DNA of 64,000 nucleotides from a virus: IMG/VR virus record IMGVR_UViG_3300037851_000102, positions 1 to 64,000 of that record; one strand, given 5' to 3'. Shown here piece by piece: positions 9,975 to 52,280 of this stretch. The position numbers and the translations under genes are program-made. The notes below the pieces were generated by a model that did no database searches, was not told the DNA's origin, and saw only the letters and a program-made list of their open reading frames with translations. The first letter of the stretch is position 1, and each line of letters opens with the position of its first letter.

Positions 9975-10060
9975 AAAAAAGAACCCCTCTGGATCGCTCC
10001 AGAGGGGCTGGTGTGGGCTTAAAGACTCTTGGGCTAACAAGGAATTTTTGCCCGACACCA
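9975..10060 (-). ncRNA. candidate antisense sRNA-1 (targets GGCUAACAAGGA leaders), including its terminator
   Basis: TTGCAA-18-TATGAT promoter (10091-10062); stem TGGTGTcGGGC/GCCCACACCA; loop CAAAAATTCCTTGTTAGCCC; terminator CCCCTCTGGA/TCCAGAGGGG plus U-run. Confidence 0.55.
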
Positions 10061-12247: not shown

Positions 12248-13357
12248 TTAACCGCTCTTCGTGGTCATGTTTCTCACAATGAGACCTTTGATAACTTCGG
12301 CATCTTCGGGAGAGACCTTCGAGAAGATTGATACCTCAGCCGCTTTGAGAGGGTCTTTGAATCGAATAAGATTCTCAGTCCAATCAATCATCCTGCGCAG
12401 AGAGAAAGTGCATTGAACTTCTTCTTTGCGGAAGGCTTCGCGAATCATGTTGCCGACCTTCACAACGGTCACAGCGACAGACTTTGAACCCGCAGGATTC
12501 GCAGCGAGTTTTGGAATTGAATTGATAACAACATTCACTTCTTCTTCAGGCGGAAGATAGTCAATGTAATAACAGCGCCAGCGATCAAGAAACGCTTCGT
12601 TCATGATGTTGGTGCCTTGATACAAGCCACGATATTGAGCCATGCGGCCAACGCCGTTGGCAGTGGCGAACAATCTGAAATTCGCATGAGGCGTTACAAT
12701 TTCATGGCCTTTTTCTTTGAGCATCAATTTGCCTTTTGGCTCAAGAACCGCATTCAACACAGAAAGAATTGCAGGCTCCGCGAAATCCAATTCGTCGATC
12801 ACAAGCCACAAGCCTTCGCGCATTGCCTTTGGAAGAACACCGTCAACCCATACGGTCTCGCCGCCCTTCACAGTCCACAAGCCAACGAAATCACCGATTG
12901 TCGTTTGACCGTTCATGTTCACGCGCAAAACACCTTGATCGATTCGCGCTGCCATCTGTTCAATCATTGAAGTCTTGCCCGAACCTGTGTGGCCGAGCAA
13001 AAGAACTCGACGATTCTCTTCGATATCCATCGCAATCCATTTTGCAGTATCGCTGAAGTGATATGCTGAATTCACAGAAGGCACGAAGTCGCCGCCTGCG
13101 CCCTTTGCGAGCGTCACACCATGAATTGAAAAACCCTTGTCTGTTGGCTTCGTTGCCATTGCTGTCCCCCTGCTTTTTTCTTTTGTATATTCTGGATGTA
13201 TCACGTCGTCCTGATCGAGTGAATACTTGACCATGTATGCCACAAGAGTTCCATCTGGACTCTGAAGCTCATCGGCATGATCGGTTTCAATGTGGTCAAT
13301 GAGGTTGTCTGAACGAAAACCGCAAATCTTACACGTTAAACGCTTTTTGTCTGACAT
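12248..13357 (-). CDS. MoxR/CobS/CbbQ-family AAA+ ATPase with N-terminal C2H2-like zinc finger
   Basis: Walker A GHTGSGKT, Walker B LVIDELD, FATAN, NEAFLDRW, FSLRRM; N-terminal CKIC...H...H. Confidence 0.9.
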   Translation of the reverse strand: MSDKKRLTCKICGFRSDNLIDHIETDHADELQSPDGTLVAYMVKYSLDQDDVIHPEYTKEKSRGTAMATKPTDKGFSIHGVTLAKGAGGDFVPSVNSAYHFSDTAKWIAMDIEENRRVLLLGHTGSGKTSMIEQMAARIDQGVLRVNMNGQTTIGDFVGLWTVKGGETVWVDGVLPKAMREGLWLVIDELDFAEPAILSVLNAVLEPKGKLMLKEKGHEIVTPHANFRLFATANGVGRMAQYRGLYQGTNIMNEAFLDRWRCYYIDYLPPEEEVNVVINSIPKLAANPAGSKSVAVTVVKVGNMIREAFRKEEVQCTFSLRRMIDWTENLIRFKDPLKAAEVSIFSKVSPEDAEVIKGLIVRNMTTKSG

Positions 13358-16214: not shown

Positions 16215-16376
16215 TTAGTTCATCCACTTGGCGAAGCCGAGCTTCACCATTTGTGCATCTGTTAAAATTAAACCTCTGCCATCTGCAAGCCTCACAAGAT
16301 GAACCGTTTGGATTCCCTCTGTGACGCTCGTTCTAATCTTCCCATAGTTCCAACAAATATATTGAACCTTATTCAT
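16215..16376 (-). CDS. 53-aa hypothetical protein (not in ORF track)
   Basis: MNKVQYICW...AKWMN-stop fills the gap and overlaps the upstream stop. Confidence 0.5.
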   Translation of the reverse strand: MNKVQYICWNYGKIRTSVTEGIQTVHLVRLADGRGLILTDAQMVKLGFAKWMN

Positions 16377-16842
16377 TTGAACCGCCTACAGTCGGATGCT
16401 CATGAAAGTATGAACCATTGCCAGCGGGTTTTTGAATCGATGCAGGCGCTCTGAAGTCTGAACCAGTTGAACCGCCGCCAACATTGAAGATCGGATTCAC
16501 GTTGATCGATGGATTGACTGTGACTGTGTTGGTATTGGAAGCGCCGCCATTTTTGGAAGCCTCACGCTCAACTTGCGCCTTGTAATCGGCTGGACGGCCA
16601 GAGAAAACAACTTCGTTGTCTTCAAAAACGATCAAGCGTGGCTTTTGAGTTCCATCGAAATCGACAGCGTACTCGTAAAGCTCGCGATTGCCTTCAAACT
16701 TCTTCTCAGTTGGTTCGCCGAGAATGTCGATCACTTGTTCTTTGCTCATGCCTGCGTCGATCTTATTAAGATCTTTCAACTTCGGCATTGAAGAACACGC
16801 GCTTAGTGCCAGACCTAAAACTATTAAAATTAACTTGTTCAT
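16369..16842 (-). CDS. lipoprotein with SmpA/BamE-like domain
   Basis: Lipobox LSAC; GMSKEQVIDILGEP motif. Confidence 0.75.
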   Translation of the reverse strand: MNKLILIVLGLALSACSSMPKLKDLNKIDAGMSKEQVIDILGEPTEKKFEGNRELYEYAVDFDGTQKPRLIVFEDNEVVFSGRPADYKAQVEREASKNGGASNTNTVTVNPSINVNPIFNVGGGSTGSDFRAPASIQKPAGNGSYFHEHPTVGGSNE

Positions 16843-20932: not shown

Positions 20933-21931
20933 TTAAAGCGGGATGGCCGAATCGATAAGTGCGCGAAGTTTCTTGGACTTGTATTGATATGAGCCAGGGT
21001 CTTTTTCATCTGGCAGCTTAACGCCTTTGACCTTGAACCCTGCGGCCTTCAAAAGATCGGCAGCTTGAACCACGCTCGGCGGAGTCTTCTTGCCTCTGCG
21101 AACTCTTGCATCTGTCCACGCATCGCGATCCCAAAGCATCACAATGGTCTTGGCCTTTGTCTTTGTCAGCCACTCCACTTGTTGACCGTGAAGCCTCTTG
21201 CCGTTTGTTGCGACGGCATCTGCGCCGACCTTGGCGCAATCCATGAATCCTTCCGTGATGATGATTGTTTCAAATTCTTTTGCAGAATCATAATTGTAAA
21301 GAATCGGACGGTTTGAAACGCCTTTTGGATTGAGAACCTTTTTAAAATCCTTGTTCTCAGGCTCGTCCCATGTGGCTCGCGCTTGCCAGAATACCAGCCG
21401 CCCGTTCATGAATGTTGGAACAATGATGCGATCCTTCGTGAATCCTGCATCTGAAACTCCCCAATCATGTTTGGCGGCGTACTGCCAAGGAATTCCGCGC
21501 TTCTCAAGATACGGGTGAGGACTTTCAATTGGATTGAATCCATAAGGAAGCTCAACGTCCACCAAGAGATGCTCATCATCATCGTGTGGGTCAGGTTCAT
21601 CGATAACCAGCCGAAGATTCAAGTGCTGGAGCGGATCCAGTGCTTTGCCCTTTAAGAGCTTCACGGCATCTTCAAAAGAAGATTTTGCAAGAGTCTGCAC
21701 CAATCGAATTGTCGATCCAGACCAATCGCAACGGTAACAAATAAACGCTCCCTCTTTAAGATTCAGCCACAGTTTTTTGTGCGTATCTTCAGAGGGCTCA
21801 CCGCGCCTGTGGCACATTGGACAGTTCATGGCGTATTCAATATGATCGACGGCATCGTGAACCTTAAACTGCACGTCGCAATCACCTAAAAACTTATCAA
21901 GATCAAAATTAGGGAATCGATCCAAGCTCAT
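20933..21931 (-). CDS. DNA primase (zinc-binding domain + TOPRIM)
   Basis: CPMC...CYRC, YLEKRGI, IITEGFMD, WDRD, KDPG. Confidence 0.88.
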   Translation of the reverse strand: MSLDRFPNFDLDKFLGDCDVQFKVHDAVDHIEYAMNCPMCHRRGEPSEDTHKKLWLNLKEGAFICYRCDWSGSTIRLVQTLAKSSFEDAVKLLKGKALDPLQHLNLRLVIDEPDPHDDDEHLLVDVELPYGFNPIESPHPYLEKRGIPWQYAAKHDWGVSDAGFTKDRIIVPTFMNGRLVFWQARATWDEPENKDFKKVLNPKGVSNRPILYNYDSAKEFETIIITEGFMDCAKVGADAVATNGKRLHGQQVEWLTKTKAKTIVMLWDRDAWTDARVRRGKKTPPSVVQAADLLKAAGFKVKGVKLPDEKDPGSYQYKSKKLRALIDSAIPL

Positions 21932-23289: not shown

Positions 23290-23819
23290 TCTCTTCTCCG
23301 CATCGCCGCTTGTTCTTCATACTCTTCGCGGTCAAGATCAGAGAGAACGGCATCATGAAAGTGATCATAGGCATCTTCTCCATAAAGAATGATTGCGTTG
23401 TAGCCTGGACGAACCCTGCGCTTCTCGTACATTTTATGAATGCAACCAATTAAGATGTAGAGCTTGAGCCCCAATTCTTGAGCAAAGATGATTGAATTCT
23501 CGATCATGGTTAATTGGCCTTTGTTCTTCGGCCAAATTGGATCAAGGTTTAAATATCTCAATCGATGCTCGTTCCAGAATTCCATAAACTTTCTGACACC
23601 CTTCATGCGCTCATCTTTTTCGATGGCTTCACGAATTTTGTCTTCAGCCTTGGCCTTCTTTTTTGGATCAACTGGAGCATTGATTAAAGATTGCGAGACA
23701 ATTTTTTCTGCTATTCGTGCGAACTTTCGAGCCACTTGTGCCGAAGCTGCATCTGCGTTAAATTCCTTGTCAGGTTCTCTTCGAGTGATAAGTATTTCTG
23801 ACAGATGTGGTGCAAACAT
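23286..23819 (-). CDS. hypothetical replication-associated protein
   Basis: Coupled to the helicase gene. Confidence 0.55.
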   Translation of the reverse strand: MFAPHLSEILITRREPDKEFNADAASAQVARKFARIAEKIVSQSLINAPVDPKKKAKAEDKIREAIEKDERMKGVRKFMEFWNEHRLRYLNLDPIWPKNKGQLTMIENSIIFAQELGLKLYILIGCIHKMYEKRRVRPGYNAIILYGEDAYDHFHDAVLSDLDREEYEEQAAMRRRE

Positions 23820-24301
23820 GATTCAACCCCTCTGCGAGTCAGACCCAAGGATTTCTGAATCTCGCCCAAACTAAAATCTTGAACAAAGCGCATATCAAAA
23901 ACTGCAAACTCTTCGTCCGTTAAAACTGCCTTCATTGAGAGCAGGAATTCTAAATCGTGAATTTCTTGGGACTCCGCTATCGGAGCATCTTCTTCACAAT
24001 CAGTGAGTTCGGACAGGACACCGCGCTTGTTCGCCGAAGATTTGTCGTAAAGATGTCCAAGGTGCCATTTTACCGAACTCGTAATCCAAGTTGATAATTT
24101 GACCTTGCGATCTTCATCGAAATCTCCAATAGCCTTCCACGCAGCAATTCGCGCTTCGTTTAAAAGATCATCGCGTTGATCGTTGAGCTTGCCTTCAAAA
24201 GAATGATTCTTTAGAAACTCCCCAACAAGATACTGCAATAATGTGTTGAAATCGTCGATGTTGCTTGTCACTGTCCCCTCACAGAACGACAAGCCTTGCA
24301 A
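23711..24301 (-). CDS. phage RNA polymerase sigma factor (sigma70 family; start possibly 24271)
   Basis: Region 2 DDLLNEARIAAWKAIGDFD...LSTWI and region 4 LTDEEFAVF.MRF...SLGEI...LGLTR. Confidence 0.78.
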   Translation of the reverse strand: MQGLSFCEGTVTSNIDDFNTLLQYLVGEFLKNHSFEGKLNDQRDDLLNEARIAAWKAIGDFDEDRKVKLSTWITSSVKWHLGHLYDKSSANKRGVLSELTDCEEDAPIAESQEIHDLEFLLSMKAVLTDEEFAVFDMRFVQDFSLGEIQKSLGLTRRGVESCLHHICQKYLSLEENLTRNLTQMQLRHKWLESSHE

Positions 24302-24336: not shown

Positions 24337-25707
24337 TTAGAACTTGGCTCGGCGCACCTGGATTTTGAAAGCACTCTCGCGGCGATAGGTGTTAAGACGC
24401 TCAACGCTATGATCCTCAAGGTTTTTGTGGCCGACAAAAAAGAAATCAAACACTTCTGCTTTATCCTTGCCTTCGGTCTTTCGCAGTGCGCGACCAATGC
24501 CCTGAAAGGTTTGAATTTCAGTTTTTTGAAATCTGGCGTTTATTAAGGCATCGATGGATGGAATGTCTTGGCCTTCACCAAAAATGTTTGTTGCGATAAT
24601 GCACTTCACTTTTCTTTGGATGAACGCTCGCTTCACTTTCTCGCGATGATCTCTTCCGTCTGAACCGCTCAAATAATAGGCATCTGGAATCAATCGGTGA
24701 AGAAGCTCGCCGTGTTCTTTGAGTCTGACAAGAACGAGCGTTTGCTTGCCTTCTTTGATTTTTTGATTGGCGATGGCCGCGATCCCTGTGTTGATTTTTG
24801 CATCAATGGTGCAGAATTTGTACGCATCTTGATATCGCATACGCATTCTTTTGCCAGCATTGGATTCCCTGAGATCGTAATGAAAGATCGTGATGTAGGG
24901 ACGAACAAGATAACCTTCTTCGATCAATTCGCTCGTTGATTTCTTAAACAGCACGTTTGAAAGAACGCCCAGCATCTCCATGTCAGATCCATCGGGACGA
25001 ACGAAGGTGCCCGTAAATCCATACCTGTAGTATGCGTTTGAGCAATTGTTGTTGATGTCTTTGTATGTGTCGGCAGCGGCATGATGAAATTCATCGATCA
25101 TGAGCATTTCAAATCGCTTGAAATCTTCTTTGGGCTTTTTCTGAATCGCTTGAATGTTGCTGATAATGATCGGGCAATCGTCTGTAAGTTTATTACCGAT
25201 TTTGCGATGGCCGAACCAATTTCTGTAATCTTCTGTCAATTGTTCGCGAAGTCCTGTGTCTGGAACCACGATCAAAGTCGGAACCTGTTTTAGCTCAACG
25301 ATTAACGCACTCGTCAAACTTTTGCCCGCTCCAGTGCCCATCACAAAAACGCCACGCGGAAGCTCTTCGGCCTTTGATCTTGCTGTGAGTTGGTAATTTC
25401 GTGGTGCCCATCCATGCGGGAGAGTCAGTTTAAGGCTCAAGGATGGCTTTGGAACGTATCTTTGGTCTTCAAGGGTCATCTTCATACCCTTGGCATCGAG
25501 AAACGTCTTTAAATGCCCTATAAGCCCTGTTGGGAAGAACCCTTCCCGATTCATCAACTTGATCGTTCCGTCCCAATACGGGCTCGCTGCGGTGGCAAAT
25601 TCAGCCCCTTTAACCTTGTAGCTCATGTGAGCGCGAGCTTCTTGCAAAAGTTCATACCCGCACTCAAGCTGTGAACGCGCATTGTTAGAAATAACTTTGA
25701 CCATCAT
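24337..25707 (-). CDS. superfamily 2 helicase (UvsW-like)
   Basis: GTGAGKS, IDEFHH, GFTGT, GEGQDIP, QGIGRALR. Confidence 0.9.
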   Translation of the reverse strand: MMVKVISNNARSQLECGYELLQEARAHMSYKVKGAEFATAASPYWDGTIKLMNREGFFPTGLIGHLKTFLDAKGMKMTLEDQRYVPKPSLSLKLTLPHGWAPRNYQLTARSKAEELPRGVFVMGTGAGKSLTSALIVELKQVPTLIVVPDTGLREQLTEDYRNWFGHRKIGNKLTDDCPIIISNIQAIQKKPKEDFKRFEMLMIDEFHHAAADTYKDINNNCSNAYYRYGFTGTFVRPDGSDMEMLGVLSNVLFKKSTSELIEEGYLVRPYITIFHYDLRESNAGKRMRMRYQDAYKFCTIDAKINTGIAAIANQKIKEGKQTLVLVRLKEHGELLHRLIPDAYYLSGSDGRDHREKVKRAFIQRKVKCIIATNIFGEGQDIPSIDALINARFQKTEIQTFQGIGRALRKTEGKDKAEVFDFFFVGHKNLEDHSVERLNTYRRESAFKIQVRRAKF

Positions 25708-25904: not shown

Positions 25905-26119
25905 TGAGCTTTGCCTTTGTAAATTACGCGATAAGCGGTCTTCTCATCGTTGTGTGAAAACTCGAACATTTCAGTGTTTTCAAAATCTGATTCTTGGAAC
26001 TCAAGATTGTGACGTGCTTTGAACCTTGCTTGAAGAAACTGGAAGGGTCTCCATCCGTTCTTGCTTGCGATGTCTGCTTCTGTGTCTGTGACGATGATTT
26101 CGATAGGTTCTTGATTCAT
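25901..26119 (-). CDS. hypothetical protein
   Basis: GGGGACAGC leader directly before the ATG. Confidence 0.6.
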   Translation of the reverse strand: MNQEPIEIIVTDTEADIASKNGWRPFQFLQARFKARHNLEFQESDFENTEMFEFSHNDEKTAYRVIYKGKAQ

Positions 26120-26918
26120 GCTGTCCCCTTGTAACTTCGACGTAGAAGTTCTCGTATGCGTTGGATCTTGTCAATGTTTCAGCGTGTGTTCTCGTATTCT
26201 GTTGTGTTGCTGTGTATTATTGAGTTGATTTTTACTGTGTTTCTTATTTTTGAGCGTAGGAAGCCCTTCTCCACACACCCTCATAGAGCCGCACGTGGCA
26301 GCGTGAGAACGCATCGAGCTTCCGCATTTATGAAACATCCATAAGAGTTACTTATGAAAGAATCATTCATGAAGAACTAGAGAACACAAAGCAAGATTGA
26401 GTAGCATTCAACACCCATCTGCGAGAGTCACCAACAGCGAATCCATGCTGCTCAACCCTCTCGCTCCCTAAGCCTAAGATGGCTTTGTTCATAGGGATAG
26501 TCCTCATGGTTCACATGAGGCGGGTCTTATCTTGAAGCAAATTGAAAAAGTACAAGCAGATCACTTCTTGGGTCTCATCCCAATCATGTCCTAACAGCGT
26601 GTTTGCTTTCTCTACTCTTGCGTTTTCTATCAGGGAGATTTTTTTAAGATCATAAACAAGGCTCAACGCACGGCTATGGCTTTTACTTTCAATTTCACTC
26701 GCCTGAGTCTGAGTCACTTGCTCCCCTTGCACCGTGGGGCGGATTAGGCGATTGATTCAGCAATCTATTCCTGTGTTCACTGTCCCCAAGTATTTGCTCA
26801 CGGATTCTGAGCTATTCCCGATTTTTAAGAGCTTACGAGAAATCCTCTTTGTTTAGGATTGGAACCGTATGCCTTTTGGTTTTGTTTGACAAGAGGGTTT
26901 GATGGATCAAGGCAGCAA

Positions 26919-26959
26919 TGTGGATATGTGGATAACTTTGTGGATAACTTTGTGGATAA
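26919..26959. repeat. tandem DnaA boxes (candidate replication origin)
   Basis: TGTGGATAA (reverse complement of TTATCCACA) at 26927, 26939 and 26951, plus a 1-mismatch copy at 26919, at the strand-switch point. Confidence 0.75.
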
Positions 26960-27064
26960 CTCATGAAACTGGTGCGTAGAGTACGACAGCGGCACTTCAA
27001 CCCCCAAATTTAAAGGTGACAATGTGGTAAAAAGATGCGATTTCGTAAACTTCAGGGGACAGTG

Positions 27065-27610
27065 ATGCGTGTACTTAAAATTTATACAGATGGTTCTTGC
27101 TTCCCAAATCCAGGCAGAGGTGGATGGGCTTTTGTTGTTGTTGAGAACGATCAAAAGATCTCTCAACACGTTGGCGGAGAATCACACACAACAAATAATC
27201 GCATGGAGTACATGGCGCTCATTCAAGCCATTGAACTCTATGCAGATCACGGAAGACTTATCATTCACACGGATTCAATGCTTCTTGTGAATACCTACAA
27301 CCGATGGATTGGAGCGTGGGCGAATCGTGATTGGATGCGAAGAGAAGATGGCGAACTTGTAGAAATCAAAAATGTGGATCTTGTGAAACGCATTTATGAA
27401 CTTAAAAAACTTCACAAATCCAAAATCGCCGTTCACTGGATTAAGGGACACGCGGGCAATAAGTGGAATGAAATGGCTGACGTGATGGCTGTGAACGCTA
27501 AAAATGCTCAACCCTATGTCTATCGCCCAAAACCTGAGAAGCCAAAACCAGAATTTAAACCCGTCGTAAAACTTCGACGTAGAAGTTCCCATGTCGAAAA
27601 CAATTCCTGA
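27065..27610 (+). CDS. rnhA: ribonuclease HI
   Basis: IYTDGSC..NPG.GGW, TTNNRME, TDS, KNVDL, WIKGHAG..NE.AD. Confidence 0.92.
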   Translation: MRVLKIYTDGSCFPNPGRGGWAFVVVENDQKISQHVGGESHTTNNRMEYMALIQAIELYADHGRLIIHTDSMLLVNTYNRWIGAWANRDWMRREDGELVEIKNVDLVKRIYELKKLHKSKIAVHWIKGHAGNKWNEMADVMAVNAKNAQPYVYRPKPEKPKPEFKPVVKLRRRSSHVENNS

Positions 27611-28193
27611 GTTTGCAAAAGAACTCGCTAAAAAATTAGAACTCGAAATGATCGGCAAAGATCCAAAGCACAAAGATGCAACGATGCGATCTCTTTCAGA
27701 TATCGTTTCACGATCTGCAAAATCAGATTCAGATCTCACAGATGCCCTTGGTTACATCGCAGGAATGGATAACGATCTTTACTGGAAGCTCGATGATGAT
27801 TTCAAACCTGTCAGAGCCAAAAGAGATGAAGGCATCGCTGCACTTGAAGGCGATCAGCGAATCATGGCGAAAACAATTTGGAAGCAAGGCGTTACAGTTT
27901 CATCTGTTTTTTTGGCAATCGATCACTCGTTCAAAAAGGGCTCAGAGCCCATACTTTTTGAGACCATGATCTTTGATGATATGGGAATTCTTGGTGATGA
28001 ATTCAAAGATTGGCAAGAACGAAATTCAAGCCATGAAGGACTTATAAGCACACACTTCAAAGCTGTGAATCTCATTCGGCACAAGCTCGGCGAAGAGGCG
28101 ATGGAGCATTTTCTGAGAGAGAAGCCGAACGCGATCAATGCAGAGCAAATCGCCAGTGCCAAAGCATTTGCGACGGCGCTTAAAAACTTGTGA
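27591..28193 (+). CDS. conserved phage protein with C-terminal tag (FATALKNL)
   Basis: VSSVFLAIDHSF...PILFETMIF motif; terminal tag. Confidence 0.7.
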   Translation: MSKTIPEFAKELAKKLELEMIGKDPKHKDATMRSLSDIVSRSAKSDSDLTDALGYIAGMDNDLYWKLDDDFKPVRAKRDEGIAALEGDQRIMAKTIWKQGVTVSSVFLAIDHSFKKGSEPILFETMIFDDMGILGDEFKDWQERNSSHEGLISTHFKAVNLIRHKLGEEAMEHFLREKPNAINAEQIASAKAFATALKNL

Positions 28194-28236
28194 TTTTATT
28201 CTTGCGATGTTGGATCTCTTCTGCCATTCTTGTTTT

Positions 28237-28340
28237 CGTTCTTCTCCTGCCAAAAAATTAAGTCGCTGTCCCACAGTAAATTTAGTTCAATAACAGGAGA
28301 GTTCTTAAAGCCAACCCTAAAAAGTTGGCTTTAATTTTTT
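28237..28340 (+). ncRNA. candidate antisense sRNA-2 (targets GGGACAGC leaders), including its terminator
   Basis: TTGCGA-17-CATTCT promoter (28202-28230) with extended -10 TG; stem TCTCCTG/CAGGAGA; loop CAAAAAATTaagTCGCTGTCCC; terminator TTAAAGCCAAC/GTTGGCTTTAA plus T-run. Confidence 0.55.
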
Positions 28341-28376
28341 CTTGCGCCTGTAAATCTTTCATGCTCATATTACAAC

Positions 28377-28580
28377 GTCATCTCGGAGATCACACCCGCA
28401 TCTCAGAGTTCTACGCGAAAGCGTGTGAGCATAGCCATGCGGGAGTAGAGATCGCTGGCGGAATAGATCTCCAAACCGATCCAGCCCTCGGCTGCATGAG
28501 AGTACAATCAGGATGGCCTTATCCGATTGGATGCAGTTAAACAGGTATAATTAGGCTCCCCTAAAAACGGAGCCTTTTTA
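28377..28580 (+). ncRNA. candidate structured ncRNA (about 200 nt)
   Basis: TTGCGC-18-CATATT promoter; several helices including a GAAA tetraloop; terminator AGGCTCC/GGAGCCT plus T-run. Confidence 0.5.
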
Positions 28581-28698
28581 TTTCGCCCCTTCCCGCCGCA
28601 AGTCGCTAAACACGGCTTGCGTTTTTCTTTTGACATAATTTCAAAGCCTGTAATACAACTGCCTACACTGAATTTAGAAATAGTGTGGGGACAGCATT

Positions 28699-29085
28699 TT
28701 GGAAGTAATAAAAATTCATCCAGAGCTTCAGAAGAGAAGCAATCACGATATCAATTTTGAAGGACAGATTTTGCGCTTCGATCTTGAGCCATGCTCAAAC
28801 GGAGTGGTCGGTGTTTATTACACAGAGATCCCTCTTAAAGAGGTTTTGAAGAAAAAAGGTGTTCCAGAATTTCTTCTTGATCGCGCAGATGGAATTGAAG
28901 ATCGCACTCATAAAGAAGTTGTTGTGAGAGATCACATTCATCGTAAATGGCATCACAAATTATTTGGAATTTCTATTGAACGATTAGTGCTTCGATGGAT
29001 TCGCAAACAGAAAGAAGAGTTTGCGGAGATTGAAGCGAGATCCAAGGCCACAGGAATTATCAAAAAACTTATCGAAGGAGAATGA
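28699..29085 (+). CDS. hypothetical protein
   Basis: GGGGACAGC leader before the TTG start. Confidence 0.6.
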   Translation: MEVIKIHPELQKRSNHDINFEGQILRFDLEPCSNGVVGVYYTEIPLKEVLKKKGVPEFLLDRADGIEDRTHKEVVVRDHIHRKWHHKLFGISIERLVLRWIRKQKEEFAEIEARSKATGIIKKLIEGE

Positions 29086-43687: not shown

Positions 43688-44000
43688 TGGCGTGGCTTCA
43701 TAAGAAGATTCAAGAACAGATGGCCGACAATTCTCAGGTCGTGCCTGAATGTAAATGGTCAGAGCGTGATCGCGCATTCTATATCAATTCGGTCGCAGGG
43801 CTCATCAAATACAAGCCCAAGGACGTGAAGGATTTAAACAGGTTTAGAGACAGATGGGTGAACTTGTTTGAGCAGTACAGATCCACTGCGCTCAATAACA
43901 AAGATCTTGAAAGCATGATGTTTGGGTTCACCAACATGATTCGCAAAGAAGAGCGCGTGAAGTACACGGCGAATATAAGAACAAGACTAAAGGGGACAGC

Positions 44001-51450: not shown

Positions 51451-51794
51451 GCGAAACCATGCGGATGTTCACGCTTTATGTGGTGGAGAAGGAGACTGGA
51501 GAGCGGATTGCGATCCGTCCAGGTCTCATTTTTGAAGAAGAGCCAACAGCGGGAATCGCAAATCGTTTCACGATCAAGGCACTGAACACAGAGAAGCGCG
51601 AAGTGATTATTGAAGCACACGCATTCAAATCAGAGGTCACAGAATCGTGGGACAAGTTCGTTAAAATGGTCGCAGATGGCGAGTTAAAGCTCGTTAATTC
51701 AGAGAATGTGATCCGCGAGATGCGAGAGGCAAGAGAGCAGGGCAAGAGCGAGCAATCGGCCAAGGATTTTGAGGATGCGCTTAAAAATTTATAG
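51447..51794 (+). CDS. tagged protein (FEDALKNL)
   Basis: Terminal motif; coupled. Confidence 0.65.
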   Translation: MSETMRMFTLYVVEKETGERIAIRPGLIFEEEPTAGIANRFTIKALNTEKREVIIEAHAFKSEVTESWDKFVKMVADGELKLVNSENVIREMREAREQGKSEQSAKDFEDALKNL

Positions 51795-51803
51795 GGGACA
51801 GCG

Positions 51804-52280
51804 ATGTTTGATGAGTACAAGACAAGAGTGATGGGCAAGTTTGAAGAGCCAGAGATATCACACAGAGATATTGACAGGCTTGCAGAGTATTTCATACGTC
51901 GATCATTAAGATACTACGCAGGCGGTGGAGCCAGACACGTTGGCGGTGCGAGAATGCCAATGGAGTTCTACCGAGATCTTGCAAAGCAGGTGATTGAGCT
52001 TGCCTATAAATTTCACGGCGACAAATCGCATTCACTCAAGTCACTCGTTGCAATCATAATCGGGCCCGAAATCGAAAAGATCTTTTCACCCGATCCAAGA
52101 GAGGCGCGTCCACCTCAAGCAATCCTTGATGAGACCGATGAGAAGTTTTGGAAGATGATGGAAGAGCCAATGCTCACGAAAAAAGACATAGAATCCTTTA
52201 CAGAGAATGATTTTAAGCCAAAGAAGCCAAGGCCAAAGACAGAGATAGAAGAGTTCAACAAGGCACTTAAAAAGCTATGA
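51804..52280 (+). CDS. tagged protein (FNKALKKL)
   Basis: Terminal motif; GGGGACAGC leader. Confidence 0.65.
   Translation: MFDEYKTRVMGKFEEPEISHRDIDRLAEYFIRRSLRYYAGGGARHVGGARMPMEFYRDLAKQVIELAYKFHGDKSHSLKSLVAIIIGPEIEKIFSPDPREARPPQAILDETDEKFWKMMEEPMLTKKDIESFTENDFKPKKPRPKTEIEEFNKALKKL

Follow-up and report, generated by a model that had tools for sequence, protein, structure and literature searches.

To our knowledge, post-transcriptional control in virulent phages is almost unexplored. Small RNAs of the Hfq type can derive from 3'UTRs, as CpxQ and SroC do, and these have a U-tailed intrinsic terminator, a conserved seed, and an upstream processing site.

The c4 antisense RNA (immI) of phages P1 and P7 comes from the region of its targets. 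Its loops pair around the ribosome-binding site and block translation, and the loop and target sequences vary between related phages (PMC12197685). In Staphylococcus aureus, the 3'UTR of the icaR mRNA contains UCCCCUG, which prevents initiation by pairing with the Shine-Dalgarno region of its own mRNA (PMC3868564). In Cluster K mycobacteriophages, an asymmetric tag known as SAS, which includes the Shine-Dalgarno sequence, precedes the starts of many non-structural genes by a few bases (PMC3203893). Four of the six phages also have a single copy in the opposite orientation; the authors left open whether the binder is an RNA or a protein, and they drew no link from the reversed copy to an RNA hairpin or terminator (PMC3203893). 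Finally, the virulent Pseudomonas phages PAK_P3 (ncRNA1/2) and phiKZ have non-coding RNAs that derive from 3'UTRs and have no known targets; for the PAK_P3 RNAs, no match to ribosome-binding sites was found (PMC4933390).

Here we analyze a hairpin and terminator in an uncultured phage, along with a tag that precedes several start codons of the same phage. As with c4, a phage RNA would come from the region of its targets and would pair around ribosome-binding sites, and loops and targets vary between related phages. Unlike c4, which has an Rfam family to itself and controls a single operon (icd/ant) of a temperate phage, the element matches no Rfam family, lies at the 3' end of an operon, and would reach about eight dispersed genes via a shared tag. 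As in icaR, a C-rich stretch (here CUGUCCC, 70-80 nt past the stop codon) could pair with a leader on the same transcript, that of the operon's first gene. But icaR is a single bacterial gene, regulated in cis or between copies of one mRNA, while here the match includes the private spacer of several unrelated phage genes. The tag resembles SAS in that it is asymmetric, has one orientation, includes the Shine-Dalgarno sequence, lies 0-3 nt from starts, is enriched, and is kept at orthologous genes of a related phage. The sequences differ (GGGATAGGAGCCC for SAS and GGGGACAGC here), as do the host and the phage group, so the tag is an analogue of SAS and not a member. The element is most likely a variant of antisense control like that of c4 or icaR.

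The locus and its genome

The window covers positions 1 to 64,000 of a genome of 110,388 bp from a freshwater metagenome. A leftward early module (about 9-26 kb) encodes CobT, a CobS-like protein, a sigma factor, and a UvsW-like helicase. Next comes a control region with DnaA boxes (about 26.1-27.0 kb), and rightward genes run from 27 kb on. The element is in a 505-bp gap between the ORF at 27591-28193, which follows the gene for RNase H (27065-27610), and the ORF at 28699-29085. The stop codon of the upstream gene ends at 28193, and the element lies about 50 nt 3' of it.

We compared the locus with two related phages and with a strain that is about 96% identical. The nearer phage, G001 (IMGVR_UViG_3300032770_000029; 50 kb, 46% complete), was found by a search with DnaE (62% identical). 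It is syntenic with our phage, with protein identities of 40-70%. The other, G002, is a complete genome of 104 kb and is more distant than G001.

Near and distant searches of a phage collection found no DNA relatives of the locus. The flanking proteins (27591-28193 and 28699-29085) have no relatives in IMG/VR or in the JGI metagenomes, and a large protein database gave just a distant fragment. An exact 24-mer of the loop was not found in the JGI metagenomes, and 14-mer scans of IMG/VR gave chance-level matches plus one unrelated match to a methyltransferase.

Several other features of this genome are worth recording. An early protein (16369-16842, minus strand) has the domain of BamE, an outer-membrane assembly factor, which points to a Gram-negative host. 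The ends of the genome record repeat each other (1-60 and 110133-110192) and contain the same terminator-like hairpin (18-60 and 110150-110192); the repeat would fit a circularly permuted genome or terminal repeats. An array that resembles DnaA boxes, at 26919-26965, has four repeats (TGTGGATAA), one of them degenerate, and contigs from unrelated organisms stack there. Outside the window, a cold-shock-domain protein (genome 66573-66878, plus strand; PF00313, E = 1e-17) is the sole candidate RNA chaperone that we saw, with no tie to the hairpins described below.

A hairpin and an intrinsic terminator on the plus strand

A sequence-only reading of this DNA had proposed a small RNA (sRNA-2) with its own promoter, a stem, an antisense loop, and a terminator, as well as a similar RNA (sRNA-1) elsewhere in the window. 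The promoter-like boxes, the stem arms, the start of the loop, the anti-leader, and the terminator are all at the positions that it gave. The features are:

28202-28207 and 28225-28230, plus strand: promoter-like boxes, TTGCGA-17-CATTCT, weak and of doubtful function, with no listed change in the ~96% identical strain
28242-28301, plus strand: hairpin 1, with the outer stem (U)CUCCUG/CAGGAG(A), an inner stem, and the apical mini-hairpin GCUGU-CCC-ACAGU
28251-28259, plus strand: CAAAAAATT motif at the start of the loop, 5' of the anti-leader (the sRNA-1 counterpart is CAAAAATT); absent from the elements of the relatives
28263-28272, plus strand: anti-leader UCGCUGUCCC (DNA TCGCTGTCCC), with CCC (28270-28272) as the open apical loop and GCUGU as the 5' arm of the apical stem
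28298-28312, plus strand: AGAGTTCTTAAAGCC motif (the sRNA-1 version is AGAGTCTTTAAGCC, at 10029 on the minus strand)
28305-28340, plus strand: intrinsic terminator, with an 11-bp stem (28305-28334), an 8-nt loop, and T6 up to 28340

The 114-nt RNA from 28232 to 28345 has a predicted folding energy of -32.1 kcal/mol (z = -6.2), and none of 200 shuffles folds as well. In the outer stem of hairpin 1, TCTCCTG (28243-28249) faces CAGGAGA (28294-28300), and the pairing runs over 28242-28249/28294-28301. The CCC loop has an unpaired probability of 1.0 in the predicted fold, and the remaining bases of the anti-leader are in the 5-bp stem and the inner stem. The minus strand of the same stretch has z = -4.3 and no T-run behind the terminator stem; the terminator at 28305-28340 is predicted to work on the plus strand only. 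In Rfam, no family reached the gathering score in the window. Nothing scored below E = 0.89 in 28150-28720, and the weak hits all miss the hairpin.

Two further terminators (28554-28580 and 28597-28630) lie within 300 nt of the first one. Between the first and the second is a structured stretch that includes a 59-codon ORF with no Shine-Dalgarno sequence. The loop of the third terminator starts with AAGTCGCT, which is also the 8-mer that leads into the anti-leader (28260-28267).

The proposed promoter is questionable. Its -10 box matches at 3 of 6 positions, and a scan for sigma-70 promoters did not report it. We also found no promoter family around TTCTTGCG and no common late-promoter motif. 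Since the promoter is weak and the element follows so closely on a stop codon, an origin as a 3'UTR is at least as likely. Of the features of Hfq-type small RNAs from 3'UTRs, we see a terminator with U6, a seed with no listed change in the strain, and a seed that is kept in a relative.

A tag that abuts start codons

The anti-leader faces a family of leaders that share the tag GGGGACAG. The leaders and the one copy in the control region are:

27055-27064, plus strand: GGGGACAGTG, before the start of RNase H (27065), which opens the operon with the hairpin at its end; 10 bp of pairing with one G.U
28687-28695, plus strand: GGGGACAGC, before the TTG start at 28699
43992-44000, plus strand: GGGGACAGC, abutting the GTG start (44001) of an SbcC-like gene
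51794-51802, plus strand: GGGGACAGC(GA), just ahead of the ATG at 51804; with 10 nt, it is the best match
26120-26128, minus strand: GGGGACAGC, abutting the ATG at 26119 of the first leftward gene
24272-24278, minus strand: GGGGACA(GTG), before the sigma-factor gene (23711-24271); the G001 orthologue has GGGGGACAGCGTTG
13161-13169, minus strand: GGGGACAGC, before the ATG at 13159, an internal in-frame start of the gene for the CobS-like AAA protein
26780-26787, minus strand: ninth copy of GGGGACAG, in the control region; the tag and a 7-codon mini-ORF on the minus strand, CACUGUCCCCAAG on the plus strand

The core of the tag, GGGACAGC, occurs 6 times in the window, with 1.25 copies expected, and none of 100 shuffles reached 6. 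The 110-kb genome has seven copies: five abut starts (the start codons at 13159, 26119, 28699, 44001, and 51804), one is inverted in the hairpin, and one is within a coding region, at 78306. The wider form, GGGGACAG, has nine copies in the genome, of which seven are just before starts, one is before the mini-ORF (26787), and one is intracoding. With its following base, as GGGGACAG(C), the tag lies 0-3 nt from seven start codons. The tagged genes are those for the sigma factor, RNase H, SbcC, and a short form of the CobS-like protein, along with three unknown genes. Partial leader matches had also been reported at 24271, 27065, 34986, and 61335, and these are real.

Other leaders of this phage have ordinary Shine-Dalgarno sequences (AAGGAG, GGAG, or GGGG). 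This implies that the tag consists of a GGGG(A) Shine-Dalgarno sequence and a fixed spacer, ACAG(C/U). For the fixed spacer, ribosome binding is not a sufficient explanation. From its counts and its placement, we consider GGGGACAG to be a genuine leader element.

Three of the tagged sites have further features. The sigma-factor gene (23711-24271, minus strand) encodes the Pfam domains Sigma70_r2 and r4; its start is tagged with GGGGACAG, and the tag is kept in G001. The CobS-like AAA gene (12248-13357, minus strand) has two in-frame starts: the upstream start comes with the early leader and lengthens the N-terminus by a Cys/His-rich stretch of about 65 residues, and the internal start at 13159 has GGGGACAGC. 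Both starts and both types of leader are kept in G001 (24871-25059, minus strand). This pattern suggests two isoforms that would be under separate translational control. Also in G001 (25060-25110, minus strand), the 5'UTR of the CobS-like gene has CCACCUUUCGG about 30 nt upstream of AAAGGUGG; these would form a local hairpin that hides the gene's own Shine-Dalgarno sequence. The tag copy at 26780-26787 and its mini-ORF sit upstream of the gene at 26511-26717. Read on the plus strand, this site (CACUGUCCCCAAGUAUU) resembles CACUUUUCCCCAAGAUU of G002 (~70790, minus strand), which directly precedes the strong terminator that closes the first rightward gene. A second anti-leader and a regulatory upstream ORF are both possible readings of the 26780-26787 site.

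Complementarity between the loop and the leaders

The anti-leader is perfectly complementary to seven leaders over 7-10 nt. The core match is just 8 nt for most targets, and 5 of the 10 complementary bases are paired within the hairpin. Hybrid energies between the anti-leader and the leaders range from -17 to -23 kcal/mol, and opening costs 6-9 kcal/mol. After opening costs are counted, the predicted net energy is -7 to -10 kcal/mol at the leaders of 13159, 26119, 44001, and 51804. The leaders at 24271 and 28699 are strongly structured (10-11 kcal/mol to open), and their net energies are weak. The leader of RNase H, GGGACAGUGA, pairs over 10 bp with one G.U. As in icaR, the C-rich motif (28263-28272) is between the stop codon (28193) and the terminator (28305-28340), presumably on the same transcript as that leader.

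How easily could such a match arise by chance? Among 5000 dinucleotide shuffles of the loop, 29 had an 8-nt complement to at least five translation-initiation regions (p ~0.006 for one loop). We estimate p ~0.05-0.1 after allowing for about 10 comparable hairpins. By chance, each genome should have about two copies of GGGACAGC outside leaders, and two are seen. Similarly, a 152-nt query has dozens of chance matches of 10-11 nt in the genome. Taken alone, the loop match is suggestive, and it becomes convincing only together with the comparative evidence.

Conservation in a strain and in a related phage

The ~96% identical strain is represented by low-depth contigs from two runs of another study, with 76 substitutions in about 1990 aligned bases (~4%). 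A single contig of 504 nt covers the locus (28080-28583) and has 22 differences, namely 21 substitutions and 1 deletion. (Three of these differences are not listed; the smallest listed distance to a contig end is 32 nt, so they are probably near the ends.) There are ten changes in 28113-28175, at the end of the upstream gene, and half or more of them are at third codon positions. No change is listed from 28176 to 28301. On the 3' side, the substitutions 28302 T>A, 28306 T>G, and 28333 A>T are followed by a deleted T at 28335 and, as far as 28552, by five further changes. With an even spread of the 22 differences, the probability that this pre-specified window of 126 nt would be free of differences is, by our calculation, 0.75^22 or ~0.002.

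Together, 28306 T>G and 28333 A>T replace a U-A pair in the terminator with G.U if the plus strand is read; read from the minus strand, the two positions would form an A-C mismatch. This pair-keeping change, along with the lack of listed changes at 28176-28301, suggests that the terminator is conserved as a structure and hairpin 1 as a sequence. Beside the target at 28687-28695, the strain has 28696 A>G, which extends the complementarity from 8 to 9 nt.

In G001, a 17-kb piece around the control region has 4 copies of GGGACAGC, with 0.37 expected. The tag is present at orthologous starts, namely those of the sigma factor (GGGGGACAGCGTTG) and the in-frame internal start of the CobS-like gene (GGGGGACAGCGTG). 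At the latter, the nine bases of the tag encode R-G-T-A in our phage and G-D-S in G001, in different reading frames, which implies selection on the nucleotides or the RNA rather than on the protein.

G001 also has one inverted copy, GAAGCUGUCCCCAG, on the plus strand. It is at the apex of a hairpin (loop CCCA, 5' arm GAAGCUGUC with GCUGUC) that lies 45 nt 3' of the stop codon of a 69-codon gene, which has its own Shine-Dalgarno sequence. A terminator follows 11 nt beyond the hairpin, with 10 bp and then U5, and it is functional on the plus strand only. Judging from these features, G001 shares the layout in which the first rightward unit ends in a hairpin that mirrors the tag, followed by a terminator. 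The fold of the G001 hairpin is moderately unusual (z = -2.5), and nhmmer found no homology link between the G001 element and the 28242-28340 element. A caveat is that, by position, the G001 element could match the site at 26780-26787 equally as well as the one at 28265. G002 has no GGGGACAG leaders and therefore provides no test of sRNA-2.

The sister element

The match of two elements to two leader families stands: sRNA-1 is a sister with the same layout and its own leaders. It and its homologues are:

9975-10060, minus strand: sRNA-1, a hairpin with UUCCUUGUUAGCCC and a terminator, 3' of the CobT operon
G001 21440-21540, minus strand: homologue of sRNA-1, a hairpin with CGUUUUAGCC; the variant early leader is GGCTAAAACGAAAGGTGG, in four copies
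G002 86318-86440, plus strand: homologue of sRNA-1, a hairpin with CCUUUGUUUUGGC inside a 10-bp stem; the leader is AGCCAAAACAAAGGAG

sRNA-1 has the promoter-like boxes TTGCAA-18-TATGAT, and it matches five early leaders over 12-13 nt, far beyond chance. In the three phages, the sRNA-1 mirrors are at a syntenic site after the CobT operon, and each mirror matches the leaders of its own phage over 10-13 nt but those of the others over at most 7 nt. This covariation is our best reason to think that mirror hairpins of this kind have a function in this lineage, and it raises the prior for sRNA-2.

The sequence-only reading went further and proposed a single guide-like scaffold for both RNAs, and this part is not supported by the comparison. 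Two motifs, CAAAAA(A)TT and AGAGT(T)CTT(T)AA(A)GCC, recur in both elements of this phage but are missing from the elements of the two relatives. Within the phage, the shared motifs have the same order in both elements, and the gapped AGAGT(T)CTT(T)AA(A)GCC pattern is found at only these two sites in the genome. The chained local alignment is of marginal significance (p ~0.01-0.04), and for the AGAGTTCTTAAAGCC motif the local alignment gives p ~0.02-0.04. The two elements share no alignable stems, and searches of the genome with patterns, fuzzy patterns, and nhmmer turned up no third copy of the scaffold. As for a protein cofactor on the A-rich motif, nothing that we found points to one, and the motif is missing in the relatives.

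A proposed mechanism

We propose that the element, as a 3'UTR or as a small RNA, represses the translation of the tagged genes by base pairing, and we give this a probability of about 0.55. Of the original idea of antisense control, the guide scaffold finds no support; what remains is a structured plus-strand RNA element that mirrors a genuine leader family, with a loop that is kept in the strain and an analogue in G001. The structure, strand, complementarity, tag enrichment, and conservation in the strain and a relative come directly from our computations, and from them we infer accumulation of the RNA, its pairing, and a repressive effect.

In this model, the transcript of the RNase H operon would have the element as its 3' end. 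Processing might also free a small RNA of about 100 nt, or the weak promoter of the element might produce one. Hairpin 1 would display CCC in its 3-nt apical loop, with the GCUGU stem arm adjoining it. First contact would be between the CCC of the loop and the GGG of the tag, GGGGACAG(C/U). Pairing could then spread over the spacer toward the start codon, to 8-10 bp, and the duplex would mask the ribosome-binding site and lower translation. Both the spacer and the 3' portion of the Shine-Dalgarno sequence would be covered by the pairing, as would the first bases of the AUG at 51804, which argues for repression. Besides acting in trans on the other tagged genes, the element might exert feedback on RNase H in cis. 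This is possible because the first gene of the operon has the matching tag (RNase H here, CobT for sRNA-1, and likewise in the relatives). With the sigma factor among the tagged genes, the element may take part in the timing of the infection programme.

Alternative explanations

Hairpin 1 could instead be a passive structure that ends the transcript of the RNase H operon and protects it from exonucleases, with a coincidental complementarity to the leaders. We consider this unlikely but worth taking seriously. The run of three tandem terminators (28305-28630) points to insulation, and a skeptic could cite all of the chance statistics above: the two non-leader copies of GGGACAGC per genome that chance predicts, a p-value of 0.006 that weakens to ~0.05-0.1 after multiple testing, and the dozens of 10-11-nt matches for a 152-nt query. 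But a passive structure should tolerate changes in its loop, and in the strain it is the terminator that changed, at four positions and with its pairing kept, while the loop and stem have no listed change. Coincidence would also have to place the same 9-mer at the apex of a hairpin before a terminator in a related phage, and it does not explain why the sister element covaries with its leaders in three phages. If the complementarity is instead a property of the DNA or of the other strand, then GGGACAGC might be a duplex site for a phage DNA-binding protein, or 28265-28272 might be a tenth leader, that of a minus-strand ORF. There is an 82-codon ORF on the minus strand (28026-28274) whose GTG start overlaps the motif, and many copies of the tag cluster around the control region (24-29 kb). 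However, the motif lacks the start-codon spacing of the true leaders, and the ORF is antisense to the end of a gene whose differences in the strain fall mostly on third codon positions. Operators would not be expected 0-3 nt from starts, including at coupled junctions within operons (43992 and 51794); this placement suits an RNA. The change in the terminator also keeps its pairing only if the RNA is from the plus strand. We rate both versions of this explanation as highly improbable.

Alternatively, the pairing might be real but have another outcome. It could activate or stabilize its targets, by opening the hairpins at 24271 and 28699 or by making or blocking an RNase site, or it could act only in cis, on the mRNA of RNase H. 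The leaders at 24271 and 28699 are indeed buried, at a cost of 10-11 kcal/mol to open. Action in cis has a precedent in icaR (PMC3868564); the leader that pairs over 10 bp belongs to the first gene of the same operon, and sRNA-1 and the CobT operon have the same arrangement in three phages. Yet the duplex would include the GGG of the Shine-Dalgarno sequence, so pairing cannot free the Shine-Dalgarno sequence for activation, and a role in cis only would leave seven other tagged sites, on other transcripts, unexplained. These outcomes seem improbable to us, and repression of the tagged genes by base pairing is the reading that we prefer.

Significance

The function of tags of the SAS type at ribosome-binding sites has been open since 2011. 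Here, a tag, its mirror, the context of a hairpin and terminator, and the covariation of tags and mirrors over three phages are visible together. This gives a directly testable hypothesis, which is that a phage RNA represses a whole set of tagged genes, including the phage's own sigma factor.

More speculatively, the lineage might run a system of addressable translational control. Tags fused to the Shine-Dalgarno sequence would define an early regulon (GGCTAACAAGGAG) and a second regulon (GGGGACAGC, including the sigma factor). For each regulon, a mirror RNA would close an operon that begins with a gene bearing the same tag, and tags and mirrors would co-evolve as lock and key between related phages. 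We advance this broader scheme tentatively and would bet against it as a whole. If it is true, then the system would time gene expression, and it might blind co-infecting relatives to each other's control. Repression by the mirror RNA, if confirmed, would give a reason for the stereotyped leaders of phages and would be a source of small orthogonal translation switches.
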